Source: an uncultured Bacilli bacterium (GTDB taxonomy: Bacteria; Bacillota_I; Bacilli_A; RF39; UBA660). Taken from it: DNA of 64,000 bases. Each line of letters opens with the position of its first letter. Position 1 is the stretch's first letter. Both the position numbers and the translations under genes were made by a program. The notes beneath the pieces were generated by a model. That model was not told where the DNA came from. It was given only the letters and a program-made list of their open reading frames with translations, and made no database searches. Location: NCBI GenBank assembly GCA_947589435.1, contig CANQBI010000001.1:12740-76739 (forward strand), in the 5' to 3' direction. Positions 3,208-55,891 of this stretch are shown here, piece by piece.

Positions 3208-3510
3208 ATGGAAAATGTATCTAATACTATTAATATGAGTTTTAGAGTTGATAAAACACTTAAAAATGATGCAGATATTTTATTTAAAAAACTTGGACTT
3301 AACACAAGTGTGGCTTTAAACATGTTTTTAAGTCAATGTGTAAGAGAGCAATCATTGCCTTTTGTTCCTTCAATGAATGTAAGCGAAAGTAATAAACCTT
3401 CAAAAAGACTTATTAAAGCTACTAAAGAAGCCGAAGATATTTTATCAGGAAAAATCAAAGTTAAAGGCTATAATAATGTTGATGAGTTTATTAATGATAT
3501 GCTTAAGTGA
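3208..3510 (+). CDS. RelB/DinJ-family ribbon-helix-helix antitoxin
   Basis: MSFRVDKTLKNDADILFKKLGLNTSVALNMFLSQCVREQSLPF matches the DinJ pattern (..K..A..vl..GL.......l.......E..lPF). Its stop overlaps the next ORF's start (GTGA). Confidence 0.7.
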   Translation: MENVSNTINMSFRVDKTLKNDADILFKKLGLNTSVALNMFLSQCVREQSLPFVPSMNVSESNKPSKRLIKATKEAEDILSGKIKVKGYNNVDEFINDMLK

Positions 3511-4076
3511 TTAAAACTTTAACAAAAACAAAGCCAAGAACAAAAGGAACATCAGAAATTAAAAAAGAATTTAAAAATAAAAATACTAATTATTATAATA
3601 TTACACAAGAATGGCTTAAAAAATCTAACCCTAGTACTCCTTCAATTAAAGATGCTATTTCTGTAACAATTAACAACGAAACTTTTATGGTTGGGAAATT
3701 AAATAAAATCATTCATGAAAACAACGAAGTAGAAGTAGCAAAGTGGTTAAGCAAAACCTTTAAAGAAAATATTGAGTATTTGCCAAACATTAAAGAAAAA
3801 GAAGGAATACAATGTGCTGACTATATTTTTAAAAATGAATTTTGGGATTTAAAGGAATTAATTGGTAATGGAAAAAGGACATTAGAAGATGCTATTAAAA
3901 AGAAGAAAAAGCAAGCAAGTAATTTTATAATAGATATAACAAATTCCAAAATGTCAAAAGAAGAACTACTTAAACAAGCAATAAAAATATATAATGGTAA
4001 ATCTTTAAAATGGATTGATAAAATAATATTAAAAAAGAATAATGAATTAATTGCAGTTTTAAAAAGAAAAAAATAG
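3507..4076 (+). CDS. Lys-rich 189-aa protein translationally coupled to the DinJ-like gene. Candidate toxin partner of unclassified family.
   Basis: GTG start overlaps the TGA of 3208..3510. Basic, Lys-rich. No recognisable RelE/YafQ, PIN, Fic or P-loop signature. Followed by a strong hairpin terminator. Confidence 0.5.
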   Translation: MIKTLTKTKPRTKGTSEIKKEFKNKNTNYYNITQEWLKKSNPSTPSIKDAISVTINNETFMVGKLNKIIHENNEVEVAKWLSKTFKENIEYLPNIKEKEGIQCADYIFKNEFWDLKELIGNGKRTLEDAIKKKKKQASNFIIDITNSKMSKEELLKQAIKIYNGKSLKWIDKIILKKNNELIAVLKRKK

Positions 4077-5616: not shown

Positions 5617-5832
5617 TTAACTTAAAAATTTTATCTTTATATCCCCAGTTATATACTCATTATAAGTAAAACTTTTTTCGTTTCCTTCATACAAAATGGT
5701 AAAAATATTCGGATAAGTTTTATAAAGAATACCTTCGTATTTGGATATTTTATTTCTAAGGCCATACACAGTTACCACAACTTTCCGATTTAAATTACTT
5801 TCAATTTTATTTTTCACAATATCTATATTCAT
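5617..5832 (-). CDS. veg: Veg protein (biofilm/sporulation-associated small protein)
   Basis: IESNLNRKVVVTVYGLRNKISKYEGILYKTYPNIFTI is typical Veg. Conserved position between yabG and spoVG. Confidence 0.8.
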   Translation of the reverse strand: MNIDIVKNKIESNLNRKVVVTVYGLRNKISKYEGILYKTYPNIFTILYEGNEKSFTYNEYITGDIKIKFLS

Positions 5833-6614
5833 TATCTTGGATACCCCACATACATAAGACCATTACCCATAATGCCACCCATACCATCTTTACCATATTT
5901 GGTTTTCTCTAAAGTACTTTTTAAATCAACTTCTTTATTTCTTTCGGTAAGAGCGATAGTAACGGCAATAATCGCGGGATCTAGGGCATGAATATTGACT
6001 CTTTTAGGACTTGAGGCAAAGTTAGCTCCCGCCATAATTAATTCTTCATAATTACTTTGACAAGCACCCGCAATAATAACTAACTTCTCATGACTTTTTT
6101 CATAATTGCGCGCCGCTTTTACGGCTTTAATAAAATTCTTGGTATTCTTATAATTTTCATTATCTTTAATACTACCTTTTTTCTTATAATAGGCATCATG
6201 ACCTGTAATAATTAAAATATCCGGCTTATATTCTTTTAATAAAAGTCCTACTTGTTCATACATATCTTCTTCTTTAATCTTTTTCCCGATGGCGTATACT
6301 CCTTCACTTTTATAAAACTTTAAACATTTATCTAAGTATTCACTATCTCCATCTATATGTAGTATTTTCCCTGGTAAGTAAAAATAATCATCTTTAACAA
6401 TATCTTTAGTGCCTCTTTCTCCTTTAAAGAAATCATCTTCTCTTGGTTTTTCACATTTTACTAAATCGGAAAAAGGACTATCCGCATATAGTCTTACTTC
6501 TACCCCTTTTAAATAATATAAACCATCTTTTATACTTATAACCTTAAAGACCGTATCATGATTATAACTTTTTCTGGTTACAAAATCCCCTTTATTAATT
6601 TCCAAACATATCAC
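5832..6614 (-). CDS. yabG: Sporulation-specific protease YabG
   Basis: Size and conserved blocks (ILIITGHDAY, LVIIAGACQSNYE) fit YabG. Synteny ksgA-yabG-veg. Confidence 0.7.
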   Translation of the reverse strand: MICLEINKGDFVTRKSYNHDTVFKVISIKDGLYYLKGVEVRLYADSPFSDLVKCEKPREDDFFKGERGTKDIVKDDYFYLPGKILHIDGDSEYLDKCLKFYKSEGVYAIGKKIKEEDMYEQVGLLLKEYKPDILIITGHDAYYKKKGSIKDNENYKNTKNFIKAVKAARNYEKSHEKLVIIAGACQSNYEELIMAGANFASSPKRVNIHALDPAIIAVTIALTERNKEVDLKSTLEKTKYGKDGMGGIMGNGLMYVGYPR

Positions 6615-11323: not shown

Positions 11324-12846
11324 TAATCTTCTTTAATCCTTTCAAATAGATTTGCAGGTTTCTCACTACCAAGATTATAAACTTCCACCATTTTATTTAT
11401 GCTATCAAATGAAGTATCTAAAACATTTAAACCTTTAAAGATTTTCTCGCTAGTTTCCGGAATAAAGGCTTGTAACATAATGGCACATACTCTTATTCCT
11501 TCAAGTAAATTATAGATAACTGTTTCTAATCTTTCCTTGTTTTCTTCATCTTTAGCAAGTACCCAAGGAGTCGTATCATCAATATATTTATTACATTTTC
11601 TTAATACATCAAAAATACATTCTAAAGCTTCATTAATTTTTAAAGATTCAACTTTACCATCAACTGTTGTCTTTAGATTATAAATACTTTCCGTTAAGTA
11701 AGCATCAATATCTTCGGTCTTCTCACTTTTATGAACAACACCCTCAAAATATTTAATACCCATTTGAATTGTTCTACTTACTAAATTTCCTAGGATATTA
11801 CATAAATCAGCATTAGTTCTCGTAATTAAAGCACTTTCCGAGAAATTACCATCACTACCAAAAGGTACTTCTCTTAAAGCATAATAACGAACAGCATCAA
11901 CACCATAAGAGTGAATGTATTCTCTTGGATCTTTATAATTACCTAAACTCTTACTAATTTTTCCCCCATCAATTATAAGCCATCCGTGCCCAAAGACTTG
12001 TTTTGGTAACTCTAATCCTAAAGCCATTAGTATGGCAGGCCAAATAATCGTATGAAAACGCACTATTTCTTTTCCAACTAAATGTAAATCACATGGCCAA
12101 TATTTCTTAAATTTCTCTGTTTCTTCGGGATAACCTAAACTAGTTATATAGTTAGTTAAAGCATCTATCCAAACATAAATAACGTGTTTTTCATCAAAAG
12201 TAACCGGTATTCCCCATTTAAATGAAGTTCTTGAAACACATAAATCTTCCAAGCCTGGTTTAATAAAATTATTAAGCATTTCATTTTTTCTTGATTCAGG
12301 CTCAATAAAGTGAGGATGAGATTCAAAGTAATCCTCTAACTTTTGTTGATATTTACTTAATTTAAAGAAGTAAGCCTCTTCCGTAACTAAATTAACATCT
12401 CTTCCACAATCAGGACATTTACCATCAACAAGTTGTGTTTCCGTCCAAAATGATTCACATGGAACACAATAAAGGCCTTTATACTCTCCTTTATAAATAT
12501 CTCCCTGATCATATAATTTTTTAAATATTTCTTGCACTCTTTTTGTGTGGTCTTCATCTGTGGTTCTAATAAAATAATCATAAGAAATATTTAAACTTTT
12601 CCATAAATCTTTTGCATTTAAAATAATTTTATCAACATATTCCTTAGGAGTAACTCCGGATTCTTTCGCTTTATTTTCAATCTTTAAGCCATGTTCATCA
12701 GTTCCGGTTTGAAAGTAGACATCATATCCTGATAATCTTTTGTATCTTGCTATGGCATCGGCAATAATCGTGGTGTAACAATGCCCAATATGAAACTCCG
12801 CACTTGGATAATAAATTGGTGTTGTTATATAATATTTTTTATTCAT
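11323..12846 (-). CDS. metG: Methionine--tRNA ligase, short form lacking the C-terminal tRNA-binding extension
   Basis: HIGH motif (AEFHIGHCYT), KMSKS-type motif (KISKSLGN), zinc knuckle CPDCG. Confidence 0.9.
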   Translation of the reverse strand: MNKKYYITTPIYYPSAEFHIGHCYTTIIADAIARYKRLSGYDVYFQTGTDEHGLKIENKAKESGVTPKEYVDKIILNAKDLWKSLNISYDYFIRTTDEDHTKRVQEIFKKLYDQGDIYKGEYKGLYCVPCESFWTETQLVDGKCPDCGRDVNLVTEEAYFFKLSKYQQKLEDYFESHPHFIEPESRKNEMLNNFIKPGLEDLCVSRTSFKWGIPVTFDEKHVIYVWIDALTNYITSLGYPEETEKFKKYWPCDLHLVGKEIVRFHTIIWPAILMALGLELPKQVFGHGWLIIDGGKISKSLGNYKDPREYIHSYGVDAVRYYALREVPFGSDGNFSESALITRTNADLCNILGNLVSRTIQMGIKYFEGVVHKSEKTEDIDAYLTESIYNLKTTVDGKVESLKINEALECIFDVLRKCNKYIDDTTPWVLAKDEENKERLETVIYNLLEGIRVCAIMLQAFIPETSEKIFKGLNVLDTSFDSINKMVEVYNLGSEKPANLFERIKED

Positions 12847-16520: not shown

Positions 16521-17030
16521 TTAATTAACATCTATTTTATTAACAATTAATTTTGTAATTATTTTAGCTAGTTTAATATTATTATCATCTTTTTTATTAC
16601 TAATTATTATGACAAGCCCACTACAATCAATGGAAGTAATAATAGGTATAACACTAAAATATGCATTAGTATTAAAGTCATTTTCTAAAGACTCACTTGT
16701 ATAAGTTTCTCTATTATCAATTAAACTTTTATATTTTTCTTTTAATGTAATATTATTTAAATCTTTTAAATTACTACTCGTAGCAATAATCTTTTCTCTA
16801 TCACTAATAATAACTCCAACATTACAAATATCATAAATAATATTACAAAGATTTTCACTTATATCTTTAATATTTTCAACTTGCGAATATTTTTTTATTA
16901 TAATAGCATTATCTGAAGTATATATTTCTAAAGGTTCACCATCTCTAATACCTAAGTTATATCTTATTTCTTTCGGAACTACAATTCTTCCTAATTCATC
17001 TATTCTTCTAGTAATTCCACTTTTAATCAT
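16521..17030 (-). CDS. spoVT: Stage V sporulation protein T (AbrB-type swapped-hairpin N-domain plus GAF-like C-domain)
   Basis: GITRRIDELGRIVVPKEIRYNLGIRDGEPLEIY N-terminus. About 170 aa. Position next to mfd as in Bacillus. Confidence 0.8.
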   Translation of the reverse strand: MIKSGITRRIDELGRIVVPKEIRYNLGIRDGEPLEIYTSDNAIIIKKYSQVENIKDISENLCNIIYDICNVGVIISDREKIIATSSNLKDLNNITLKEKYKSLIDNRETYTSESLENDFNTNAYFSVIPIITSIDCSGLVIIISNKKDDNNIKLAKIITKLIVNKIDVN

Positions 17031-23127: not shown

Positions 23128-23325
23128 TTACAAGATATAGAGAATAGCAAATAGTGATAATAAACCAGGTACTCCTAAAAAGGAAGTAACAGTTATAGTT
23201 GAAATATTTATTGGTAAATAAACCCCAACATTTTTAAGCATTATATTAATACCATAGATAATTCCAAATGCAAATACTATTCTTTTTAAGATTGTACCTA
23301 GTTTATTCATCATAATATCACCCAC
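23128..23325 (-). CDS. bofA: BofA-like sigma-K processing regulatory membrane protein
   Basis: GVYLPINISTITVTSFLGVPGLLSLFAI aligns with B. subtilis BofA (G.H.PINL.TT.ISG.LGIPG...L). Confidence 0.65.
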   Translation of the reverse strand: MGDIMMNKLGTILKRIVFAFGIIYGINIMLKNVGVYLPINISTITVTSFLGVPGLLSLFAILYIL

Positions 23326-23330
23326 TAAAT

Positions 23331-23350
23331 TTTATTTCCCGGGAAATATT
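23331..23350. repeat. 20-bp palindromic element TTTATTTCCCGGGAAATATT, copy 1, immediately 3' of recR
   Basis: Identical 20-mer recurs at 26657..26676, immediately 3' of gyrA. Confidence 0.6.
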
Positions 23351-24270: not shown

Positions 24271-25830
24271 TTAAATTATTTCTACTTTATCTTTATCAAA
24301 AACATCATTTATTTCAGTTTTTGATTCCAATACTTTTTCTTCTATGTATTTATATACTTTTTTATTTTTTAAATTAGTAATGTATTTTTCTTTTTCATGA
24401 TTCCAACGGTCTTCGCCAATAAATACTAATTTGTATTTTCCTATATTTTCTTTTTCTATATCATTTTCTATTTCTAAAGACATTTTATTAGCCATATCAA
24501 CATTATGTTTATTATTAGTAGTTAAAATTAGATAGGAAGTTGAAGCCGCAACTACATTACTATCTTCTAATATTGCTTTTGTTTTACCATTATTGGAGAT
24601 AGTTAAATAATTCTTTAAATCTTTTTTAGCTTGTTCTAATGCTGTTTTTTTAGCTTCAACAAAACAGTTATTAATTCTAATATTTATAAATTCTTCTAAA
24701 TTATTATTTTCTACCTTATTTTCATCAATATTAGTTTGATTATTTTCGGTAATTTCATCTTCTTTTTTTACTTCTTTTTCAACACTAGATTTTTGTATTT
24801 CTTTATCAGTATTAAAATAATCTAATAAAATCATTTCTAATATAGTATAAGAATCAACATTAATATTTATTTTAGATAAACTATCAGCAAGACTTAATAT
24901 CATATTTTTATAATCAGTAAATTGAAGTCTGTTATATTGACCATTTATTTTATAATTTTTAGCTTTATTACTTACGACATCGATTATTTTCTTGATTAAA
25001 CTTTTATAATCAACCGCTCTATTACGATATTCATTTACCAGATTTAAAAATTTATCAACATCATTATCCTCAATAGTTTTAATTAAATCGTTAATACCTT
25101 TTTGCGAAATAGTTTTAATTTGTTTTTCAATTAAATCTAAAGTTATTTTATCAGCATTTTTAGATAATTGATCTAAAAGACTTAAAGCATCCCGCATGCC
25201 ACCTTCCGAAAGATAAGCAATTTCCTCTAAGGCATCATCATCAATATTTATATTTTCCAACTTACAAATTTCTTTTAATCTTTTAACAATATCACTAACT
25301 TTTATCTTTTGAAAATCAAATCTTTGACATCTTGATAAAATAGTAATTGGAACATTTTCAATATTTGTGGTAGCTAATATAAATATTGAGTGTGCTGGTG
25401 GTTCCTCTAATGTTAATAATAAGGCATTAAAAGCACTTGTTGATAACATATGTACTTCATCGATAATATATACTTTATATTTACCATTTGTTGGAGTTAA
25501 TTTAACATTTTCTATTAATCCTCTTATTTCATCAACACCATTATTTGAAGCTGCATCTATTTCTATAATATCGGGATTATCGTGAAAATTAGTGCAAAAA
25601 TCACATTTACAACAAGGTGAACCATCAACAGGTTCTAAACAATTTATAGCCTTCGAAAACACCTTTGCTGTTGTGGTTTTTCCAGTTCCTCTAGGTCCTG
25701 AAAAAATATAAGCATGGGATATATTGTTGTGAATAATTGAATTTTTTAATGTTTTAATTATATAATCCTGACCGATAATATTTTCAAAATCATCTGGTCT
25801 ATATTTTCGATAAAGCACTTTGTATTTCAT
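24271..25830 (-). CDS. dnaX: DNA polymerase III subunit tau/gamma
   Basis: GPRGTGKTT Walker A, zinc module (CxxC..C..CxxC), DEVHMLS, SRC. Confidence 0.9.
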   Translation of the reverse strand: MKYKVLYRKYRPDDFENIIGQDYIIKTLKNSIIHNNISHAYIFSGPRGTGKTTTAKVFSKAINCLEPVDGSPCCKCDFCTNFHDNPDIIEIDAASNNGVDEIRGLIENVKLTPTNGKYKVYIIDEVHMLSTSAFNALLLTLEEPPAHSIFILATTNIENVPITILSRCQRFDFQKIKVSDIVKRLKEICKLENINIDDDALEEIAYLSEGGMRDALSLLDQLSKNADKITLDLIEKQIKTISQKGINDLIKTIEDNDVDKFLNLVNEYRNRAVDYKSLIKKIIDVVSNKAKNYKINGQYNRLQFTDYKNMILSLADSLSKININVDSYTILEMILLDYFNTDKEIQKSSVEKEVKKEDEITENNQTNIDENKVENNNLEEFINIRINNCFVEAKKTALEQAKKDLKNYLTISNNGKTKAILEDSNVVAASTSYLILTTNNKHNVDMANKMSLEIENDIEKENIGKYKLVFIGEDRWNHEKEKYITNLKNKKVYKYIEEKVLESKTEINDVFDKDKVEII

Positions 25831-25883
25831 GATGTAATTCCTTTCACCTTTAATTATACCATATTAAAGCCGATTTTTTACCA

Positions 25884-26297
25884 TTAATCACGTAAATTTT
25901 TAAAAAAGTTATCAATTAGTTTTTGATATTTTAATTTTAATCTATTACAAATATTTGTTTGTTTAAATATATGATTATCTTTATTTTGATTTAATAGATA
26001 ATAAACATTATTTATTCGACATTCTTTGATTATCATTTCACACATTTTGCAAGGTTCTAAAGTAACGTACATATCACAATCATTAAGACGCCAATCTTTT
26101 AATTTTTTTTCCGCCTTTTGAATTGCTTTTATTTCAGCATGACCAAGCACATTACATTTTTTTTGGCGATTATTAAACGCCTTACTAATTATTTTATTAT
26201 CTTTAACTATAACAACTCCCACCGGGATTTCCTTCTTTTTGTAAGCTTTTAAAGCTTCTTTATAAGCTTGTTCCATATATTCTATCAACATTATCAT
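25884..26297 (-). CDS. tadA: tRNA-specific adenosine deaminase TadA
   Basis: HAE and PCxxC zinc-binding motifs (LGHAEIKAI ... LEPCKMC). The ORF-track N-terminal extension (GTG at 26318) overlaps the SRP RNA 3' end, so a later Met is the likely start. Confidence 0.8.
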   Translation of the reverse strand: MIMLIEYMEQAYKEALKAYKKKEIPVGVVIVKDNKIISKAFNNRQKKCNVLGHAEIKAIQKAEKKLKDWRLNDCDMYVTLEPCKMCEMIIKECRINNVYYLLNQNKDNHIFKQTNICNRLKLKYQKLIDNFFKNLRD

Positions 26298-26304
26298 CTC
26301 CACT

Positions 26305-26385
26305 AAAAAAGCACACACAAATAGGGACTGATGTGGCTGCTGTCTTCCAACTCTGACCAGGTTACAGTATATTTGTTGTGCATTT
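26305..26385 (-). ncRNA. ffs: Small (4.5S-type) signal recognition particle RNA
   Basis: Minus-strand ACCUGGUCAGAGUUGGAAGACAGCAGCCACAUCAG matches the conserved SRP RNA domain IV (ACCAGGUCAGGUCCGGAAGGAAGCAGCCAAGGCAG). A closing helix GCACAACAAAUA/UAUUUGUGUGUGC and a U-run follow. Neighbours tadA and dnaX, as SRP RNA does in Bacillus. Confidence 0.8.
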
Positions 26386-26424
26386 AGATAATAACATATT
26401 TATTTGTATTATGCAAATTATGTT

Positions 26425-26646
26425 AATGTTTCACGTGAAACATTAAACAGCAAATTAATGTGTTGTATTAACATGTAACATTATTATATTTATCATTTAA
26501 TTTAATTTATTTTTTTAACATTATTAATTGTCAATGTTTTAAAATTAAGTATTTACTTTATGTAAATTATAAATGAATTTTAAAATAAATTTAAAAATTA
26601 TTAATTTTTTATTAAAAAGAAAAATCAATGTTTCACGTGAAACATT
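26425..26646. promoter_or_regulatory. Two identical perfect 20-bp palindromes AATGTTTCACGTGAAACATT, 202 bp apart, bracketing an ORF-free AT-rich spacer between gyrA and ffs
   Basis: Read directly: 26425..26444 and 26627..26646 are identical, each perfectly self-complementary. Confidence 0.5.
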
Positions 26647-26656
26647 GATTTAAAAG

Positions 26657-26676
26657 TTTATTTCCCGGGAAATATT
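26657..26676. repeat. 20-bp palindromic element TTTATTTCCCGGGAAATATT, copy 2, overlapping the gyrA stop codon
   Basis: Identical to 23331..23350. Confidence 0.6.
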
Positions 26677-29188
26677 ATTCTTGAGTTTCATTAGTTGAAG
26701 ATTCTTGTTCAATCTCTTTGTCATTTGATTGTTCAATGGATTGTTCTTCAGTATTATTTTCTTCTTCATTATTAATATGATCAACAACACTAACTGTAGC
26801 AACTAATTGATTATCTCTTAATGATATTAGTCTTAAACCTTGAGTAACTCTACCAAGTGTTGAAATTTGGTTAATTGGTAACTTAATTGTAATACCAGCG
26901 TTTGTCATAATAACAACATCTTTATCATCTTCAGCAACTTTAGCTGCTACTAAATTTCCATTCTTTTCTGTAACATTAAGAGCTAGTACTCCTTTACTTC
27001 CCCGTTTTGTTTGTCTAAATTCACAAACTTTTGTGCGTTTACCATAACCCTTCTCTGTTACTAGTAAAATAACTGAATCTTCGGAAACAACTTCCGAACA
27101 AATACATTCGCCACCACTTAAGTTAATGCCTTTAACACCAGCGGCAGTTCTACCCATGGCTCTAATTTCATCTTCAGAAAATTTAACCATTCGACCTTTA
27201 TCGCTACCTAAAAGGACTATATCATTACCAGTCGTCTTTTTAACATCTAAAAGTTCATCATTATCTTTTAAACTAATACATAATTTACCCGTAGTTCTGA
27301 TGCTATCAAATTCACTGATAATCGTTTTCTTCACAATACCTTTTTTAGTGGCAAATAATAAGTATTTATATTCTTCATCTTTATTAATTTTTAATACTGA
27401 GTTAATCTTTTCATCTTTTTCAATTTGTAATAGGTTAATTACTGGTATACCTTTAGATTGACGACTAAATTCTGGTATTTCATAACCCTTAATCCGATAC
27501 ACTTTACCTTTATTAGTAAAGAACATAATGTAATCATGGGTTGATAAATTAATTAGATGTTCAACATAATCCTCATCATTAGTCGTAAGTCCTTTAACAC
27601 CCATTCCACCACGATTTTGGGTTCTAAAGGTATCATTAGCTGTTCTCTTAATATAACCTTTATTAGTTAAAACTACCATAACATCTTCTTCAGGTATTAA
27701 AGATTCATCTTCAATATACTCAATTGCTGTCATATCAATTTTTGTTCTTCGTTCATCTGCATATTTTTCTTTTATTTCTAATAATTCATTCTTAATTATT
27801 TCTAGAACCTTATCACGAGATGCTAAAATACCTTTTAATTCTTCAATCTTTAGAAGTAATTCTTTTAATTCTTCTTCAATCTTAGCTCTTTCTAAGCCTG
27901 TTAAACGACGAAGTTTTAATTCTAGAATAGCATCTGCTTGTACTTCTGTTAATGAATACTTATTCATTAAAGTTTCTTTAGCTATAACATCTGTTTCAGA
28001 CTCCCTTATAATCTTAATAAAATCGTCTAAATTATCAAGAGCAATCTTATAACCCTCTAAAATATGTACTCTCTTCTCAGCTTTATCAAGTTCAAAACGC
28101 GTTCTTCTAATAATAACTTCTTCTTGATAATTAATGTATTTTGAAATTATGTCTTTTAATCCAAGAGTTCTAGGAACTTTATTATCAATCATTAAGAAGA
28201 TAATACCGTAATTTACTTGGAATTGGGTATGTTTATACAAGTTATTTAAAACAACTTGCGGATTAGCATCTTTCTTTAAAGTAATCGTGATTTTAATACC
28301 ATCTTTTAAATCAGTATGATAATCAGCAATACCATCTATTACTTTATTATGAACAAGTTCCGCTACTTTAGTTTTAAGTTCGGATACATTAACACCATAT
28401 GGAACTTCATCAACAATAATATAATGTTTACCATCTTTTTCTTCAATACTTGCTTTACTTCTGATAGTAATGCTACCTCTTCCAGTTTCATAGGCTTTTT
28501 TAATACCACTATTACCAAGAATTATCCCACCAGTTGGAAAATCCGGCCCTTTAATATATTGCATTAAACCATCAGTATCAATATCAGGATTATCTATATA
28601 AGCAACACATCCATCAATAACTTCACCTAAATTATGAGGAGGTATATTGGTAGCCATACCAACGGCAATACCCATTGTACCATTAACTAAAATGTTTGGA
28701 AATCTTGATGGTAATATTTCTGGTTCTTTCTCTGATTCATCAAAGTTTGGTATGAAATTAACCGTATCTTTATTAATATCTCTAAGTAACTCCAAAGAAA
28801 TTTTAGAAAGTCTTGATTCAGTATAACGCATTGCTGCAGCACCATGACCAGCAATATTACCAAAGTTACCGTGACCATCAACTAAAGTATTTCTATAGTT
28901 GAAATCTTGGGCCATTCTAACCATAGCCTCATAAATACTTGAGTCTCCATGAGGGTGATATTTACCCATTACATCTCCCACAATACGGGCTGATTTTTTA
29001 TGAGGTTTATCTGGAGTATATCCTGATTCATACATTGACCATAAAATCCGACGATGAACGGGTTTTAAACCATCTCTTAAATCCGGTAAAGCCCGAGAAA
29101 TTATAACACTCATGGAATATTCAATAAATGATGATTTAATTTCATTAACAATATTATTTTCTTCTAATCTATCTCTACTATGATCCAT
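26675..29188 (-). CDS. gyrA: DNA gyrase subunit A
   Basis: AMRYTE with catalytic Tyr. QRGG-like [10 protein letters not shown]-terminal beta-pinwheel repeats. Acidic tail. Confidence 0.95.
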
Positions 29189-29197
29189 AAAAACCTC

Positions 29198-32213
<3,016 letters not shown>

Positions 32214-32303: not shown

Positions 32304-32756
32304 TTAAACAAAATTTATCATTTTTCGGGAATTTAAAGTGTTATTTAATTTCAAACATAACAAAATTAATTTTTCAAAACTCTTTTTGGATAAATCAGAG
32401 TAAAAAACATAATTATTAGGACAAGATATTTCTAATCTTCCATTTACTTCTTCATAGTTAATTATTTTGTTAACATTTAAAAATAAACATTCCGGCTGTC
32501 TTGGAGAACCTAATTGCATAAATACTAAGTTGTTATTTTCATCGATAATAATCGGAACCCGATACTTAATATTTAATATACTTTTAGCACATTCAATCCT
32601 TCCTTCTAAACTACTACCATAATAATTGCAATTAAATTCTAATACTTTTTTAAAACTGGCATTAAGATATTTAATTTCATCTTCATCATAAATGATGGTT
32701 TTTCTTTGTTTTTTTGAAACTGCTACCGTATTTTTGGTAATTAAATAATTATTCAT
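32304..32756 (-). CDS. comK: ComK-family competence transcription factor homolog (short form)
   Basis: FNCNYYGSSLEGRIE and VPIIIDENNNLVFMQLGSPRQPECLFLNVNKI align with B. subtilis ComK (SCRFFGSSYAGRK ... PPIMVDPSNQIFLFPTLSSTRPQCGWISHVHV). Confidence 0.75.
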   Translation of the reverse strand: MNNYLITKNTVAVSKKQRKTIIYDEDEIKYLNASFKKVLEFNCNYYGSSLEGRIECAKSILNIKYRVPIIIDENNNLVFMQLGSPRQPECLFLNVNKIINYEEVNGRLEISCPNNYVFYSDLSKKSFEKLILLCLKLNNTLNSRKMINFV

Positions 32757-34873: not shown

Positions 34874-36229
34874 TTATAACTTTGATTTAATATCTTTTAA
34901 CAAGTTATCTAAATTATGATTATTTTTTAAATCATTTTTGATTTTCTCACAACTAGCTACAACTGTGGAATGATCTCGGCCTCCAAATTCTAAACCAATT
35001 TTAGCTAGATTTTCTTCGGTTTCTATTCGACATAAGTACATGGCAATATGTCTGGGTCTTGCAATATTATTACTTCTTCTTTTACTTTTTAAATCCTCAA
35101 CAGTTATTTTAAAGTAATCAGCCACCACTTTTTGAATATGGGATATCGTATTTTCTTGATATATATTGGTACTTACATAATCTTTTAAAGCTTCGACCGC
35201 AAAATCTAAGTTAATAACCTCGGGAGCCATCATGGCGGTATAAGCAAGTAATCTATTAATAGTGCCTTCAATGTGTCTTACATCATTCGGACAAGCATTA
35301 GCAATATATTCGATAACATCTTTATTTATCTTATCTTTAATTGAAGAATTTTTTAATTTCTGTTTAATTATTTCACATCTTAGTTCAAATTCCGGTGGAC
35401 AAATATCTACCGGAAGTCCCCAGGCAAACCGACTTTGGAGTCTTTCCTCAATCTTTTTTAAATCATCCGGGCTCCGGTCACTCGATATAATAATCTGTTT
35501 ATTGGCTTGATTTAAAGCTTCAAAAGTGTGGAAAAATTCTTGTTGAGTTTTCTCTGCTCCCACTAGAAACTGGATATCATCGATGATTAAGACATCAACA
35601 TTGCGATATTTATTTTTAAAGTTATTGGCATATTGAATACTTTCTTTGCCATTTTCCATCTTGGAAATACCCGTATATTCATCCCTAAAATCACTACTGG
35701 TAGTATATAAAACTTTTTTATTGGAATGTTCTGTTATATAGTTACCTATTGCATGCATTAAATGCGTTTTCCCAAGACCACTTCTTCCATATATAAATAA
35801 AGGATTCCTTGTTGTTCCCGGAGCTTGAGCCACATTCATTGCGGAAATAAAGGCTAGTCTATTGGATTCTCCCACTACAAAGTTATCAAAATTAAGGTTA
35901 GGATTTAAATTCGTATTCCACTCGATTGTTTGATATTCTTCCTCAATTGCTTCTTCTAAAGTTTTATTATTTTCTTCTTGGATTTCTTCATCGGTTAAAA
36001 ATTTAAAATTATAATTAATTCCTGTTAAGGAATATAAAGTATCATTAAGTAAATCAATATATTGTAATTTAAGTATTTGTTTATGAATCGCTAAAGGTAC
36101 TTTGATAACAATATCTTTGTCATCCATACTGATAAGTTCTAAACCCTTAAACCAGGTGGCAAAAGAAGTTGGACTTACATCTTGTTCAAGTTCTTTTAAC
36201 AAATCTTTAAATACATCTTGAGTTTTCAA
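34874..36229 (-). CDS. dnaA: Chromosomal replication initiator DnaA
   Basis: GRSGLGKTHL Walker A. AAA+ box VII. C-terminal DNA-binding helix (RPRHIAMYLCR, GGRDHSTV). Confidence 0.95.
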   Translation of the reverse strand: MKTQDVFKDLLKELEQDVSPTSFATWFKGLELISMDDKDIVIKVPLAIHKQILKLQYIDLLNDTLYSLTGINYNFKFLTDEEIQEENNKTLEEAIEEEYQTIEWNTNLNPNLNFDNFVVGESNRLAFISAMNVAQAPGTTRNPLFIYGRSGLGKTHLMHAIGNYITEHSNKKVLYTTSSDFRDEYTGISKMENGKESIQYANNFKNKYRNVDVLIIDDIQFLVGAEKTQQEFFHTFEALNQANKQIIISSDRSPDDLKKIEERLQSRFAWGLPVDICPPEFELRCEIIKQKLKNSSIKDKINKDVIEYIANACPNDVRHIEGTINRLLAYTAMMAPEVINLDFAVEALKDYVSTNIYQENTISHIQKVVADYFKITVEDLKSKRRSNNIARPRHIAMYLCRIETEENLAKIGLEFGGRDHSTVVASCEKIKNDLKNNHNLDNLLKDIKSKL

Positions 36230-36606
36230 CTTACCTCACCCCGCTATCATACCTATCCCAAAATAATTGTAACATTAAACCAAATTTAATAAAAGAATAA
36301 TTTGCATTGTTAATAGTTATCCACAAGTTTTCCACCTAATTTTCTTTGATAAAATCTATCATACACAAAGTTATCAACATTTTCAACATTTTTTTGTTAA
36401 CTTTTTAACTTATCAACATGTTAATAAATTATTTAGGTTTGTTAATAATGTTGAAAACTTAATTTATATAGGATATACCTATGTTATCTTATGATATTTG
36501 CAAACAAATTAAAAACTTTTAGGTGTTAATAATTAAAATATCCATTGTTTTTTCCACATTTTAGTTATAAAATAGTTAACTATTAAAGTTAAAAAGAGGG
36601 ACTAAT
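36230..36606. promoter_or_regulatory. oriC / dnaA promoter region with a DnaA-box cluster
   Basis: Perfect DnaA box TTATCCACA at 36316..36324. Near-consensus boxes TTTTCCACC (36327), TTATCAACA (36371 and 36410), TTTTCCACA (36550). Very AT-rich. Coincides with the global gene-strand switch. Confidence 0.8.
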
Positions 36607-38469
36607 ATGGATGAACTTAAAATAATTAAGAAAAAATATGGCGAAGAAATGATGCATTATATTAGAGATAACTTTGCTAGTATATTAGAAAAAAATGGCC
36701 AAATGCTTAATCTTTTAACTAATCATTTTAATGAAAGTCATAGTCTATATGAAGATCTATATAATAATGGTTTACGATATAATTTTAAAGAATACATCTA
36801 TAGTTTAACAGATGAATCAAAGCCCAAAAAAATTGAAAAAGATTTAAAGTCGCCAAAAGAATTACTAGAGTCAGTTGGATATGATTTATATGAGTGTAAG
36901 AGTGAAGAAGATATTCAAAAGTTTAAAAAGTATTATGCTCATGGTGAAGAGTTATGTACTTTTAATGGGGGAAGATTAGAAAGATGTTATGTATTTTTTG
37001 CGGTTAAAAAGAATGTTTTAGATATTAAAAGAGAAAACTTTCCTAATCCCCAAAGACAAGATGCCTATGGCACAAGCATCTTAAGTATTCAATTTGATCG
37101 AACTGTATCTCATAGATTATCTATTAAAAATCGCTATAATCATCATGTCAATAATCCGGATAGTACTTTTTCCAATAATTTAGATAATATAGTAGAAGGT
37201 TTAACAGCAGCTTTTGCTAAATACTATGGTTTAAAACAAGAAATTAAAAGTTCTAATTTTGAAATAAATGGTTATGTTAGAGCGAGTGATGGTAAATTTT
37301 ATAAATATAATCTTGAAATAGATAATGTTTATTACTGTCCCGATAATATAATAATTAAAAATGATGGTAATGTTAAGAAATATCCTAAAGAAAAGTATCT
37401 TATTTTTGATTATTTTATTTTAAATTTAGAAACTAAAAAAATTGAAAGTTATACTAGTGAAAATGATGGGTTTATCCATAGCTTAGGTAAAATAAAAAAA
37501 ATTACAATAACCAATAAAAAAGATTATAAGGAATTATTAATATATAATGAAGATGGCTTTGAAATAACAATTAATTTAGATAAAAATAACAGTATTATAA
37601 TGGTTGATAATTCCTATGTTAAAGAAATAAAGGAAAATTATTTGTTATATAATTATAGATGTCAAAAAATATATCTTTCTAATGTTAAAAAGATAAGTTC
37701 TAATTTTATGAAAGCAAACCTAGATTTAGAAGAAATATTTTTACCAAAATGTGAAACTATAACTGATGACTTTTTACATAATAATTTAAAATTAAAAACC
37801 TTTTATTTTCCTAATGTAACTTTTATTGGCAATAATTTTTTAAAATTCAATAGTATTATAGAGGACATTTCTTTACCAATATGTAAAACTATTAAAAATG
37901 ATTTTTTATATTTTAATACTGATTGTAAAAAAATAGATATGCCTATGTTGGAAACAGTAGAAAGAAATTTTATGATGTATAATAAAGAATTAGAAACAAT
38001 AAATTTGCCATCTTTAGTTTCGACTGATCGAAATTTTTTATGTTCTAATATTATTTGTAAAAAGATAAATATGCCTAAGTTAGAAACAATAGGCAAAAAC
38101 TTTATGAGTGATAATAAATGTTTAGAAGTTATAAGTCTTCCTTCTTTAAAATATATATGTGAACATTTTTTATATAATATAGAGGAAATTAAAATCTTAT
38201 ATCTGCCGGATGTTTACTATATTTTTGGTAATATTTTAGGATGTTCTAAAATAGAAGCAGCTATCCTTCCTAATCTTATATCTATATCATCTTATCCACA
38301 ATTTTTTGAAATAACCAAATATTTATATGCTCCCAAGTTAGAAAAAGTTTCTGATATTTCATTTTTTAAAAATACACAATATTGTTATACACCACTTTTA
38401 AAAGAATTTTGTAATACCGAAGATATAATTTTAGAAAGTAATCAAATAAAATTAAAAAGATGTAAGTGA
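36607..38469 (+). CDS. Leucine-rich-repeat (BspA/LRR_5-like) protein with a unique 340-aa N-terminal domain and no signal peptide
   Basis: C-terminal half made of about 22-23-aa repeats (L..I.LP.L..I...FL..N..L). No N-terminal hydrophobic segment. Confidence 0.6.
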   Translation: MDELKIIKKKYGEEMMHYIRDNFASILEKNGQMLNLLTNHFNESHSLYEDLYNNGLRYNFKEYIYSLTDESKPKKIEKDLKSPKELLESVGYDLYECKSEEDIQKFKKYYAHGEELCTFNGGRLERCYVFFAVKKNVLDIKRENFPNPQRQDAYGTSILSIQFDRTVSHRLSIKNRYNHHVNNPDSTFSNNLDNIVEGLTAAFAKYYGLKQEIKSSNFEINGYVRASDGKFYKYNLEIDNVYYCPDNIIIKNDGNVKKYPKEKYLIFDYFILNLETKKIESYTSENDGFIHSLGKIKKITITNKKDYKELLIYNEDGFEITINLDKNNSIIMVDNSYVKEIKENYLLYNYRCQKIYLSNVKKISSNFMKANLDLEEIFLPKCETITDDFLHNNLKLKTFYFPNVTFIGNNFLKFNSIIEDISLPICKTIKNDFLYFNTDCKKIDMPMLETVERNFMMYNKELETINLPSLVSTDRNFLCSNIICKKINMPKLETIGKNFMSDNKCLEVISLPSLKYICEHFLYNIEEIKILYLPDVYYIFGNILGCSKIEAAILPNLISISSYPQFFEITKYLYAPKLEKVSDISFFKNTQYCYTPLLKEFCNTEDIILESNQIKLKRCK

Positions 38470-41749: not shown

Positions 41750-43246
41750 TTGGGGATGTTTAAGATGCATTTATTGGGAGATTTTATTTATAATAACATT
41801 AAATATTTAATTTATATTAATAACAAGAACTTTACTTTTAGTAAGGTAGTTAATAATGAAGAAATATTTTATTTAACGGAAGAAGAACATAATTTAATAA
41901 AAGAAGTTTTAAAACAAATTCTTCCGACGGGTAATTTAATTAAATTAAATAATGTTACTTATAATCATAAGAAATATAATCATTATTTAGATATGACTAA
42001 TGATTTACATTATTTTTATGGCCAAAATAATAATATCAAAGATTTAGCGAATTTATGTTATCTCTATAATAATGAAGTAGAGTACGTAGGAGATAAACAT
42101 TTAAATAACGAAGATAAGGCTAAGAAAAGATATCAAAGATTAGTTAAAGTTAATAAAATATTAATAACTTTAAATATCTCTTTGGTGGCTTTTTTATCGA
42201 TTATTCCCAAAATTAATCCTGATATCAATAGATATATTAATAATCCCGTAACTTTAGCAATAAGAGAACTGGATAATAGAGTCATGACTTTAGAAGAAGT
42301 ATATGATTATTTAGATAAAAATCCTTACCTTAGTGAAAAAGAAAAAGAATATATTCATAAATTTGAAGATTTTATCATTACAGAACTACCATATACCAAT
42401 TATCAAGATTTAAAAGAAAATTTATTAAATATGAGAACTATTTATCATGAAGAACCAGGTGAATTTAGAGGTACTTGGACTTATCAAGGTAAAGAAAAAT
42501 ATAATATTGATATTTATAATAGTAAAAGTAGTGGGGATTTAGAAGAGGCTGATTATAGTACTTTTTCACATGAAGTATTACATGCTTTTACCGTTAATTA
42601 TGGTCATAAACCGAGATATATGAGTCCTTTTTATGAATTTATTAATATGGTTTTAAATAATGAATTTGTTAGTAATGAGGGTGGTTATTATCAATATGAT
42701 ATCGGTTATAGTGCCCTAAATAATGAAGGATACGCCTTAATGGAGTTATTTAACACCGATACTTTAAGAAGATTTCACGCCGAAGATGATGGAAATATCT
42801 TGCTTAAAGAATTAGAAACAATTATACCAGATCAATGGTTAGGTATTAAATTATTTAATACTTTTAATGATTATTATCTAATGTTAAAAAGTCATACTTA
42901 TACTAATGAAGAGTTAAATAGTATAAAATCAGAATTAAAAACAATGATAAATAGATATTATTTAGCAAAGAATAAACAAAATATTAGTGAAAATATTTAT
43001 ATGGCTTATTTATTAGATGTTAATACACTTATTAATAAGTTAGCCTCATCTTATAATGATTATGTTATTGAATTTCAATTTGTTAATATGAAATATTATT
43101 TTAATGATAAAATACCTCATAATAAAGAATTTGTTTTAAGATTAAAATCACCCGAAACAGGTGAGGTTTTGAAAGAAGTATCCTTAGATGATACCGCAAG
43201 TGTGGATAATGATTTATTAAATATTTTTTCTGATAAAACTAAATAA
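41750..43246 (+). CDS. Hypothetical membrane-anchored protein with an HExxH motif (possible zincin-like metallopeptidase)
   Basis: One TM helix (ILITLNISLVAFLSII). FSHEVLHAFT contains HExxH. No further family assignment possible by eye. Confidence 0.4.
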   Translation: MGMFKMHLLGDFIYNNIKYLIYINNKNFTFSKVVNNEEIFYLTEEEHNLIKEVLKQILPTGNLIKLNNVTYNHKKYNHYLDMTNDLHYFYGQNNNIKDLANLCYLYNNEVEYVGDKHLNNEDKAKKRYQRLVKVNKILITLNISLVAFLSIIPKINPDINRYINNPVTLAIRELDNRVMTLEEVYDYLDKNPYLSEKEKEYIHKFEDFIITELPYTNYQDLKENLLNMRTIYHEEPGEFRGTWTYQGKEKYNIDIYNSKSSGDLEEADYSTFSHEVLHAFTVNYGHKPRYMSPFYEFINMVLNNEFVSNEGGYYQYDIGYSALNNEGYALMELFNTDTLRRFHAEDDGNILLKELETIIPDQWLGIKLFNTFNDYYLMLKSHTYTNEELNSIKSELKTMINRYYLAKNKQNISENIYMAYLLDVNTLINKLASSYNDYVIEFQFVNMKYYFNDKIPHNKEFVLRLKSPETGEVLKEVSLDDTASVDNDLLNIFSDKTK

Positions 43247-47263: not shown

Positions 47264-48430
47264 GTGGATACTGAAAAAAATACAGATACACAAATTTTAA
47301 ATGTGCCAATTGAAGACATAATTCCTAATCGTTTTCAACCACGACTTAATTTTGATGAAAATTCATTAAAGGAACTAGCATCTTCAATTAAAGAACATGG
47401 GATTATTCAACCCCTAGTTTTAAGACGCCTTAATGATAAGTATGAAATCATTGCAGGGGAAAGAAGATATAAAGCTGCTAAACTTGCGGGACTTACATCA
47501 GTGCCAGCAATTCTTAGTGATTTAGATGATAATGCGAGTGCGGAAGTTGCCATTGTGGAAAATGTTCAAAGAAAAGATTTAACCTCAATTGAAGAAGCTA
47601 AATCTTATAAAACATTACTTGATAAAGGGTATTTAACCCAAGAAGAACTGGCTAAAAAAATGGGGTTAAGTCAATCAGCAATTTCTAATAAATTAAGATT
47701 ATTATCTTTATCAGATGAAGTTCAAAAAGCCATTATGGAAGGTAAAATTTCCGAAAGACATGCCAGAAGCCTATTACAATTAGAAGATGAAGATGACCAA
47801 AATAGTTGGTTAAAAAGAATTATTGAAGAAAGATTAACGGTTAGAGATTTAGACCAAAAATTAAAAGATTTAAATAAAAAAGAAAAATCAGAAGATGATG
47901 TACCAATAATTGAATCAACTCCAAGTATTTCGGATATAAAAGAAAAAGCTACTGATATAGTATCTTCTAAACCAATTGAGAATAAAGAAGAAGTAAAAAC
48001 TGAAGAAAAGAAAACTAATGTAATACCTAATAAATTCTTTAATTTTTTAGAGGATGAACAAGCCAATATGAATGTATCAGAACCAACAGAAGAAGAAAAA
48101 GAAGAAATTGCGGAAGCAATGAATGTAAATCCGATAATTTATCCAAAAGCTCCAGTAGTAAATGTTGAACCAGTTGTTGATTCAGTTGTTGAGCCAGTTG
48201 CGAGCGAAGAAGAAATTGAAATGTTAGATTTTGATGTTCCAACCAAAGAGCAAGAAGTAAAAGATGCAGATAATAAAGTTGAGGAACAAAAAGAATTTAG
48301 TTTAGATAAAGCTTATGAATTAATTAGTAAATTAGAAGATGATTTAAGAAATAATAATTATAAAATTAGTATGTCTCGAGAAAATGATGATAAAGAAGTT
48401 AGATATACAATTACAATAAGTAAAGAATAG
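47264..48430 (+). CDS. ParB/Noc-family DNA-binding protein with a long acidic C-terminal extension. No adjacent ParA.
   Basis: ParB box (IIQPLVLRR, YEIIAGERRYKAAKLAG) and HTH (QEELAKKMGLSQSAISNKLRLL). About 190-aa Glu/Lys/Asp-rich tail. Confidence 0.8.
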   Translation: MDTEKNTDTQILNVPIEDIIPNRFQPRLNFDENSLKELASSIKEHGIIQPLVLRRLNDKYEIIAGERRYKAAKLAGLTSVPAILSDLDDNASAEVAIVENVQRKDLTSIEEAKSYKTLLDKGYLTQEELAKKMGLSQSAISNKLRLLSLSDEVQKAIMEGKISERHARSLLQLEDEDDQNSWLKRIIEERLTVRDLDQKLKDLNKKEKSEDDVPIIESTPSISDIKEKATDIVSSKPIENKEEVKTEEKKTNVIPNKFFNFLEDEQANMNVSEPTEEEKEEIAEAMNVNPIIYPKAPVVNVEPVVDSVVEPVASEEEIEMLDFDVPTKEQEVKDADNKVEEQKEFSLDKAYELISKLEDDLRNNNYKISMSRENDDKEVRYTITISKE

Positions 48431-54435: not shown

Positions 54436-55062
54436 ATGGAAAAACAAACAATTGAAGAATTTAAAGAAGAAAGTAATATCGAAATTATTAAATCACTTAT
54501 GAAAATGCATAATGGATATATTACTTCCAAAGAATTAACCAATTTAGGTATTCACAGAATGTATCTAAATATTATGTGGAAAAAAGGAATGGTTGAAAGA
54601 GTAGGTAATGGGGTATATATGGACCCAAATATAATTGAAGATTTTTATTATATCTTTAATCTTAGTATGCCTAATACAATATTTTCACATATGACTGCTC
54701 TTTATTTTCATAATCTATCTAATAAAGCTCCAAGTAAGGAATATGATATAACGGTAAGAAAAAATTACAATAGTCCTCATCTAAAAGATAATGATGTCTT
54801 TTATGTTTCTGATGATATTTATGAGTTAGGACTTATCGAGGTTGAAACTCCTTTAGGTAATAAAGTAAGGGCCTATGATAAAGAAAGATGTATTTGTGAT
54901 ATTATTAGGTCTAAAAAAAGAATGGATTTAGAATTAGTTAAATACAGTGTTAAAGAATATGTAAAAAGAAAAGATAAAGATTTAATAAAACTTTCTAAAT
55001 ATGCTGATGCTATGGGAATAAAAGAGGAAGTAATGAATTATATAGAGGTTTTTTGTGACTAG
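54436..55062 (+). CDS. abiEi: AbiEi/AbiGi-family antitoxin (winged-HTH) of a type IV abortive-infection TA pair
   Basis: About 200 aa. N-terminal wHTH. 8-nt overlap with the downstream nucleotidyltransferase gene. Confidence 0.65.
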   Translation: MEKQTIEEFKEESNIEIIKSLMKMHNGYITSKELTNLGIHRMYLNIMWKKGMVERVGNGVYMDPNIIEDFYYIFNLSMPNTIFSHMTALYFHNLSNKAPSKEYDITVRKNYNSPHLKDNDVFYVSDDIYELGLIEVETPLGNKVRAYDKERCICDIIRSKKRMDLELVKYSVKEYVKRKDKDLIKLSKYADAMGIKEEVMNYIEVFCD

Positions 55063-55891
55063 TAGAAGTTTAAAAGATAGATTAAAGAATATTTCTAAAG
55101 AAAAAGATGTTGATTTTAACACTTTATTAAGACTTTATATGTATGAAAGATTTATTGAAAGATTGTATGAAAGTAGATATAGAGATAATTTTATTTTAAA
55201 GGGTGGATTTTATATTAGTGTTTTATTTGGTATAGAAAATAGAACTACAATGGATATAGACTCGGCTTTAAAAAATGTAAACTTTTCCCAAGAGGAGATT
55301 ATAAAAATGATTAAAGAAATTATAGCAATTAATCTCAATGATAATGCTAAGTTAAGTTATTTAAGTATTGATAAAATTAGAGAAGAAGATGAATATGGTG
55401 GTTTTCGTATTAATCTTCAAGTTGAAATAGATAAAATAATAGAAAAATTTCATATTGATATTGCTACGGGAGATCCTATAACACCTCAAGAGATAAGTTA
55501 TAAATATAAACCATTATTAAGAAATGATTATATCAATTTATGGGCTTATAATTTAGAAACTATCCTTGCTGAAAAATTAGAAACTATTTTAAGTAGAGTG
55601 GAATTAAATGGTCGAATGAAAGATTTTTATGATATTTATTTAATTTATACGAAAGATTGGGATAATATTAATATAGATAATTTAAGAATGGCTATCCAAA
55701 AAACATTTTCTAAAAGAGAATATATAGGGAATATTATAGAAACTTTAAACACAATTAAAAATAGTAATGTATTAAAAATTAGGTGGAAAAGTTATCAAAA
55801 GAAATATACTTATGCTAAAGATATTTCTTTTGAAGATATAATGAATTCTTTAGAAATAATGTTAAATAAAATAAATAAAGTTATAATATAG
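55055..55891 (+). CDS. abiEii: AbiEii/AbiGii-family nucleotidyltransferase toxin (DUF1814)
   Basis: GTG start. FILKGGFYISVLFG...R.TMDIDSA is the pol-beta-type NTase motif (GG/GS ... D.D) of the family. Confidence 0.7.
   Translation: MTSRSLKDRLKNISKEKDVDFNTLLRLYMYERFIERLYESRYRDNFILKGGFYISVLFGIENRTTMDIDSALKNVNFSQEEIIKMIKEIIAINLNDNAKLSYLSIDKIREEDEYGGFRINLQVEIDKIIEKFHIDIATGDPITPQEISYKYKPLLRNDYINLWAYNLETILAEKLETILSRVELNGRMKDFYDIYLIYTKDWDNINIDNLRMAIQKTFSKREYIGNIIETLNTIKNSNVLKIRWKSYQKKYTYAKDISFEDIMNSLEIMLNKINKVII

Follow-up and report, generated by a model that had tools for sequence, protein, structure and literature searches.

Genes and features at the locus

Within the window, by which we mean the whole 64-kb stretch of DNA that was analysed, the genes run along the minus strand in the order dnaA (34874-36229), dnaN, a comK-like gene, recF, gyrB and gyrA and, past gyrA, a gap that contains two palindromes, ffs, tadA, dnaX, ybaB, recR, bofA and holB, followed further along by pth, mfd, spoVT, metG, rsmA and yabG. 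This order is collinear with the origin region of B. subtilis, with the correspondence covering its dnaA-gyrA and scr-dnaX regions. Four DnaA boxes, with at most one mismatch each, are clustered upstream of dnaA and the cumulative GC skew reaches its minimum at about 36 kb; oriC is therefore placed there, about 10 kb from the palindromes (Table 1). The original prediction had located the palindromes between the 3' end of gyrA and ffs, and the annotation bears this out, with the correction that everything lies on the minus strand and is read in the order gyrA, parS-2, spacer, parS-1, ffs, tadA, dnaX (the names of the two palindromes anticipate their assignment below).

Table 1. Positions of the features discussed in the text, numbered from the first nucleotide of the window.
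Feature	Position	Strand	Remarks
ffs, small SRP RNA gene	26297..26390	-	Rfam RF00169, 55.1 bits, E = 2.6e-9
Predicted sigma-70-type ffs promoter	26388..26417	-	TTTGCA, 18-nt spacer, TG-extended TATTAT; from a consensus scan
parS-1, 20-bp palindrome	26425..26444	no strand	core 26427-26442; exact match to the parS consensus; ffs-proximal
Spacer, non-coding, 182 bp	26445..26626	no strand	neither sequence nor length conserved
parS-2, 20-bp palindrome	26627..26646	no strand	core 26629-26644; exact match to the parS consensus; gyrA-proximal
NBS palindrome TATTTCCCGGGAAATA	26659..26674	no strand	exact published NBS; abuts the gyrA stop codon
gyrA, 3' end borders the site	26675..29188	-	NCBIfam NF004043, 1140 bits; stop codon 26675-26677
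Second perfect NBS core ATTTCCCGGGAAAT	23334..23347	no strand	gap downstream of recR
DnaA-box cluster upstream of dnaA, taken as oriC	36317..36558	no strand	at the GC-skew minimum
Sole ParB-family gene in the window, Noc-type	47264..48430	+	directly after rsmG; ParB_N and HTH_ParB, GERR CTP motif

Geometry of the two palindromes and their spacer

The 20-mer AATGTTTCACGTGAAACATT is found exactly twice in the 64-kb window, with a start-to-start distance of 202 bp, and two matches arose in none of 100 dinucleotide-preserving shuffles of the window. Both copies are perfect palindromes and, being identical, are thus direct and inverted repeats at once. The symmetry extends to 30 bp at copy 2 (26622-26651) and to 24 bp at copy 1 (26423-26446). 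Twin palindromes of this spacing had been predicted and stand as described, as does the AT-rich, ORF-free spacer of about 180 bp between them: it measures 182 bp, has a G+C content of 11% against 26.7% in the window, and holds just ORFs of 22-27 codons that are not conserved in relatives. No third copy of the 20-mer was found in the window with up to three mismatches allowed; within the 64 kb the motif is confined to the pair and is no dispersed repeat.

Several candidate functions of the segment were considered and rejected. Small peptides were discarded on the lack of conservation of these short ORFs. An Rfam scan of the region at the E-value threshold gave no RNA family besides ffs and one chance-level match, overlapping the gyrA-proximal end of the spacer (26618-26711, E = 0.92), and a small RNA was rejected on this result and on the unconserved spacer. 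With no DnaA boxes in 25736-29739, the AT-rich spacer was dismissed as a second replication origin or DNA-unwinding element, and a recent duplication was dismissed as the source of the two copies because their flanks are unrelated to each other.

An arrangement of identical direct and inverted repeats around an AT-rich segment that lacks ORFs is also what a small invertible or mobile cassette, MITE-like or a recombinase substrate, would show at its ends, and such a cassette had been among the original suggestions. The spacer, however, cannot be aligned even among relatives with 88-99% identical GyrA, there is no recombinase or transposase gene nearby, no target-site duplication is apparent next to the 20-mers, whose flanks are unrelated, the 64 kb hold no further copy of the motif, and a core of perfect symmetry would give site-specific inversion no polarity. 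We therefore give the cassette next to no probability.

The palindromes match the parS consensus

The 16-bp core shared by both copies, TGTTTCACGTGAAACA, shows no mismatch to TGTTNCACGTGAAACA, the parS consensus for B. subtilis, C. glutamicum and other species, and the parS of Hyphomonas is given as TGTTTCACGTGAAACA itself (PMC7022226). The parS duplex of in-vitro CTP and spreading assays is GGATGTTTCACGTGAAACATCC (PMC7053999), and its central 18 bp are common to the sites of the window. On the strength of this match the two 20-mers are very probably chromosomal parS, the centromere-like loading sites of ParB (Spo0J). The pair is a known and canonical element, previously unannotated, in an uncultured organism, and no new regulator site. 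The motif had been said to fit none of a list of common Firmicutes operators; it looked unfamiliar because parS was missing from that list, and its identity as a textbook parS had been overlooked. The broader idea of conserved, positionally biased sites for a dimeric protein was right, as the motif is not dispersed and is kept in relatives.

Two other assignments were rejected. A parS-like sequence, TGTTCCATGTGAATCA, lies inside metG at 12451-12466; with two core mismatches it falls within chance expectation and is probably non-functional. The flagged 20-mers were also considered as NBS, tATTTCCCGGGAAATa, which has A1 and C6 in place of the G1 and A6 of the 20-mers.

parS arrays in related genomes

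The GyrA of the window was searched against one genome per species, giving 80 loci with 66-99% identical GyrA and 1.05 Mb of sequence, nearly all from metagenome-assembled genomes of uncultured gut Bacilli of rabbit, human and ruminants. Some of these relatives have been deposited as Tenericutes, Erysipelotrichaceae or Clostridium sp. CAG:762. Of the 80 loci, 70 carry perfect parS cores in the non-coding DNA that follows gyrA, before or after ffs, and 69 of these have at least two; the comparison with related gyrA-ffs gaps that had been proposed thus finds the motif conserved. All 309 perfect cores in the 1.05 Mb lie in non-coding DNA downstream of gyrA and none was found elsewhere in the 80 loci. 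The copy number ranges from 1 to 17 per locus with a median of three (at most 15 perfect cores, or 17 when one end mismatch is allowed), and as many as 17 sites are packed into some 1.6 kb of non-coding sequence. Tandem repeats carry the sites in some lineages, as in L065 with 10.8 copies of a 61-bp unit.

The tandem-repeat loci are L065 (8650-9308), L025 (8461-8913), L050 (8587-8735) and L077 (8520-10110), with units of 61 bp, about 64 bp and 37 bp. The ten loci that have no parS downstream of gyrA are L028, L045, L047-L049, L059-L061, L063 and L072, and their centromere sites, if any, must lie elsewhere.

Aligned across the eight closest lineages, the gyrA-ffs gap is rich in indels, with a mean column identity of 54%, and is conserved only in islands: the NBS next to the gyrA stop codon, both parS sites and the ffs promoter. 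The sequence of parS-2 is invariant in all eight lineages and that of parS-1 in seven, with a single end-base change in L002. Such parS islands in drifting DNA are what strongly selected protein-binding sites would be expected to leave, and the quick change in copy number among relatives suggests that the number of sites can be tuned freely.

Relation of the parS sites to gyrA and ffs transcription

On the sense strand of gyrA the extended palindrome of parS-2 is followed by TTTTTCTTTTT. It is the sole terminator-like match in 26200-26800, with 13 pairs where 0.1 matches are expected, and at the 3' end of gyrA a 101-nt region with a fold z-score of -2.7 forms a 13-bp hairpin at parS-2. Six of the eight closest lineages retain the T-run after parS-2; in its place, L073 and L018 have another hairpin with a T-run at the gyrA stop codon. 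As judged from these sequence features, parS-2 probably doubles as the gyrA transcription terminator in this lineage. The hairpin, followed by UUUUUCUUUUU and unique in its surroundings, could also be taken to mean that the palindromes act at the RNA level only, as gyrA terminator hairpins or as structure in the ffs 5' leader. We consider this extremely improbable: parS-1 is not followed by a T-run and, being upstream of the ffs promoter, would not be transcribed with ffs; the sequence is invariant and shows no covariation across lineages, as expected for recognition at the DNA level; arrays of up to 17 copies would make no sense as terminators; and L073 and L018, which lack the parS-2 T-run, have their own terminator hairpin.

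The two blocks of the predicted ffs promoter, TTTGCA and a TATG/TAT -10 block, are conserved in the eight-lineage alignment. In the window and its six nearest lineages about 10 bp separate the -35 hexamer of ffs from parS-1 upstream of it. ParB bound to parS is reported to modulate nearby promoters in some species, and ParB at parS-1 could influence ffs transcription. Both points would fit an operator pair, at which a transcription factor would loop the DNA between two dimers and control ffs-tadA-dnaX or read-through from gyrA. The motif, however, is exactly parS, and more distant relatives have 65-175 bp between ffs and the last parS, or have their arrays on the far side of ffs. Neighbouring sites in the relatives are 36-1212 bp apart (median 139) and show no period of 10-11 bp (Rayleigh n*R^2 below 2); spacing varies freely without helical phase, and copy number, at 1-17, varies freely too. 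An operator pair is on these grounds very improbable; the looped or dimer-of-dimers regulator first proposed does not agree with such spacing and copy number, and promoter control of ffs, tadA and dnaX, also proposed, would be a side effect at most with the parS-ffs distance varying as it does.

NBS sites form a second, separate class

The NBS palindrome at the gyrA stop codon is 30 bp from parS-2, centre to centre, and is invariant in all eight closest lineages. The second NBS core, downstream of recR, recurs at the same offset from gyrA in the relatives L008, L002, L003, L004, L054, L018 and L073. A census was made of every site of the form xTTTCyCGy'GAAAx' in 2.18 Mb of related loci, which returned 458 pure parS, 193 pure NBS and seven single-base variants; no chimeric or hybrid parS/NBS site was found among the 651 sites of these loci. 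The parS sites are limited to one gap, whereas the NBS are dispersed over other intergenic positions too, and a confined parS with a dispersed NBS is the known distribution of ParB and Noc sites. There are two separate classes of site and no chimeras, so two discrete specificities, parS and NBS, are under selection. That the classes are separate and differ in distribution points to two proteins rather than to one promiscuous binder.

The NBS are also concentrated at the ends of parS arrays. Their density within 130 bp of the array ends is 2.2 per kb against 0.088 per kb overall, about 25-fold, in loci (L002-L081 and L089-L168) that are not phylogenetically independent. An NBS is present at one end or both in 42 of 97 arrays and at both ends in 14, giving the layout NBS-(parS)n-NBS, and NBS at array ends recur with different offsets in different lineages. 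Examples of flanked arrays are those of L073 (8527/8562/8724/8749), L007 (4097-4735) and L091 (18740-19420). To our knowledge, an enrichment of NBS at the ends of parS arrays has not been described before.

A Noc-like protein is the only ParB-family protein near the origin

The best NCBIfam match of the single ParB-family protein of the window is the Noc model, at 273 bits and so below the cut-off of 315 bits, and among solved structures its best matches are Noc of Geobacillus thermoleovorans and of B. subtilis. Specificity in this family is set by four residues, R173/T179/A184/G201 for parS and Q173/K179/K184/R201 for NBS; parS-specific variants always have R173, and for NBS binding a single lysine, at 179 or 184, is sufficient (Jalal et al. 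2020, PMC7383237). The protein of the window has Q173, K179, S184 and R201. The pattern Q-K-x-R is found in all 120 orthologues listed, with S, T, A, N or Q at position 184; in three of these the residues were read by eye from the sequences, the automatic pattern having missed them, and are the same. Across 267 homologues position 184 is S, T, A or N. Nearly all of the top 150 representative clusters are likewise Q-K-x-R, and none of the exceptions has R173/G201. From the Noc-type residues at 173, 179 and 201 the protein is predicted to bind NBS and not parS; per-variant scores for QKSR or QKNR are not part of the published supplement (PMC7383237).

The protein aligns with Noc of G. thermoleovorans from residue 21 and with that of B. 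subtilis from residue 27 onwards. Its start is directly preceded by in-frame stop codons, and the N-termini are equally short in all 120 orthologues listed. By sequence, the protein is one without the N-terminal amphipathic helix for membrane targeting, the helix that defines Noc function (PMC8429893). At its other end it carries a long C-terminal tail of about 180 residues, acidic in the copy of the window and variable in orthologues. The family comprises at least 150 clusters at 50% identity, with total lengths of up to about 850 residues.

The gene lies directly after rsmG, as noc does in B. subtilis. The B. subtilis order continues with the soj-spo0J pair; here the canonical rsmG-noc-soj-spo0J order is without soj and spo0J, and a convergent PBP gene stands in their place. 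No ParA/Soj/MinD-type deviant Walker A motif was found in any frame of the window. A tblastn search with the N-terminal 210 residues of the ParB family found nothing but the Noc-like gene in the window and the 80 gyrA-centred loci, and nothing but Q-K-x-R proteins in 80 dnaA-centred metagenome loci. On long contigs, no parA or parB was found within 10 kb of the Noc-like orthologues, where the genes are rsmG, the Noc-like gene and PBP genes. Altogether, no ParB with R173/G201 was found in the window, in the 160 related origin-region loci, among the top 120 homologues or in the top 150 clusters.

These observations could also be read as a takeover, in which the Noc-derived protein of the window has replaced a lost ParB and serves both parS and NBS, one protein for two classes of site. 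The Noc-like gene is the only ParB-family gene seen near oriC across the clade, soj and spo0J are missing from their canonical place, position 184 is S, T, A or N and not the lysine that is almost invariable in Noc, the protein lacks the Noc membrane helix and is therefore not a classical nucleoid-occlusion factor, and NBS and parS lie side by side. Against this, the parS-specific variants in deep mutational scanning keep R173, and the variants described there as non-functional, promiscuous or binding hybrid sites do not include the QKAR type (PMC7383237). A promiscuous binder should tolerate hybrid sites, of which there are none among the 651, the genomic distributions of parS and NBS differ, and the ParB of S. 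pneumoniae works without ParA. We consider a takeover highly unlikely. Since the two classes of site differ in their distributions, we infer instead that a canonical ParB is encoded outside the window. Its absence from the window is weak evidence against this, because parB of S. aureus is encoded away from noc.

Proposed role of the parS and NBS sites

The two palindromes have the parS sequence, lie close to the origin and are selectively conserved while the copy number of parS turns over among relatives. The mechanism that we propose for them is drawn from characterised members of the ParB family (PMC7053999, PMC7022226), and clamp loading, spreading and SMC recruitment at this locus are inferred by analogy. 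Each 16-bp palindrome would be recognised by one ParB dimer via its helix-turn-helix domain, and binding to parS would promote CTP binding and closure of the N-terminal gate. The closed clamp would then slide onto the flanking DNA, freeing parS for the next round, and with repeated loading a ParB domain several kb wide would form around gyrA-ffs, some 10 kb from oriC; two parS sites rather than one would be expected to raise the loading rate. As in other Firmicutes, such a domain would mark the origin for segregation and recruit the SMC condensin. In B. subtilis and S. pneumoniae the ParB domain loads SMC near the origin (PMC7053999, PMC7022226), and S. pneumoniae has ParB and four parS but no ParA, so that ParA is not obligatory (PMC7022226).

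A more tentative model, which we think unlikely, is that the centromere of this clade of small-genome gut Bacilli is composite: a dense parS array bracketed by NBS that load a Noc-derived clamp without a membrane anchor. DNA-bound proteins block the sliding of ParB on one side (PMC7053999), and an NBS-loaded clamp at the edges of the array could therefore be a boundary. We speculate that the Noc-derived clamp acts there as a roadblock, keeping ParB clamps inside the array and protecting gyrA and ffs; another possibility is that it belongs to the partition complex as a second component.

Comparison with known systems

The locus resembles the ParABS/Spo0J system in having the same 16-bp palindrome, close to the origin and in more than one copy. 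B. subtilis has 10 parS sites, eight of them in the origin domain (PMC7022226). In the ParABS/Spo0J system the sites are scattered over tens of kb, whereas in this clade all those detected lie in the gyrA-ffs gap and form tight arrays, and here neither parB nor parA is next to noc or near oriC. Many B. subtilis parS sites lie inside genes.

In relation to the Noc/NBS system of Bacillus and Staphylococcus, TATTTCCCGGGAAATA of the window equals the published NBS, and the protein of the window is nearest to Noc structures and has Q173, K179 and R201. It differs from Noc in being without the 10-residue membrane-targeting helix and helix alpha-2, in having S, T, A or N for K184 and in its long acidic C-terminal tail.

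Clusters of multiple parS sites are known from Corynebacterium (10), Streptomyces (21) and Myxococcus (22) (PMC7022226), which likewise provide multiple loading sites for ParB in the origin domain; unlike them, this clade packs up to 17 sites into about 1.6 kb and shows rapid turnover of copy number among close relatives. The parS density of this clade is closer to that of plasmid centromere repeats.

The parS pair itself is of little consequence, being a textbook explanation for what had been an unknown operator. For annotation, the sites mark the origin domain in these metagenome-assembled genomes and predict a ParB gene. For the study of ParB-family CTP switches, the interest lies in dense, fast-evolving parS arrays restricted to one gap, in the NBS at their ends and in a Noc-type family that is helix-less; arrays, NBS and an anchor-less Noc together offer a natural setting for asking how one stretch of DNA is shared or partitioned between two related sliding clamps.

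Other features of the origin region

Two ORFs beside oriC, at 36607-38469 (+) and 41750-43246 (+), encode 620 and 498 residues and have no Pfam match, and the former has no NCBIfam match either. Both are missing from the otherwise syntenic origin regions of the relatives L082 and L084, and they look like lineage-specific insertions. The window also holds the sporulation and competence genes yabG (5832-6614), spoVT (16521-17030), bofA (23128-23325) and the comK-like gene (32304-32756) in a lineage of about 27% G+C; spoIIR is present in the relatives L082 and L084, and the complete relative OZ007025.1 is just 1.34 Mb. An AbiEi/AbiEii toxin-antitoxin pair lies at 54436-55891 (+), and a RelB-like and CdiA_C-like pair, assigned from the annotation of the matching contig L087, at 3208-4076 (+).
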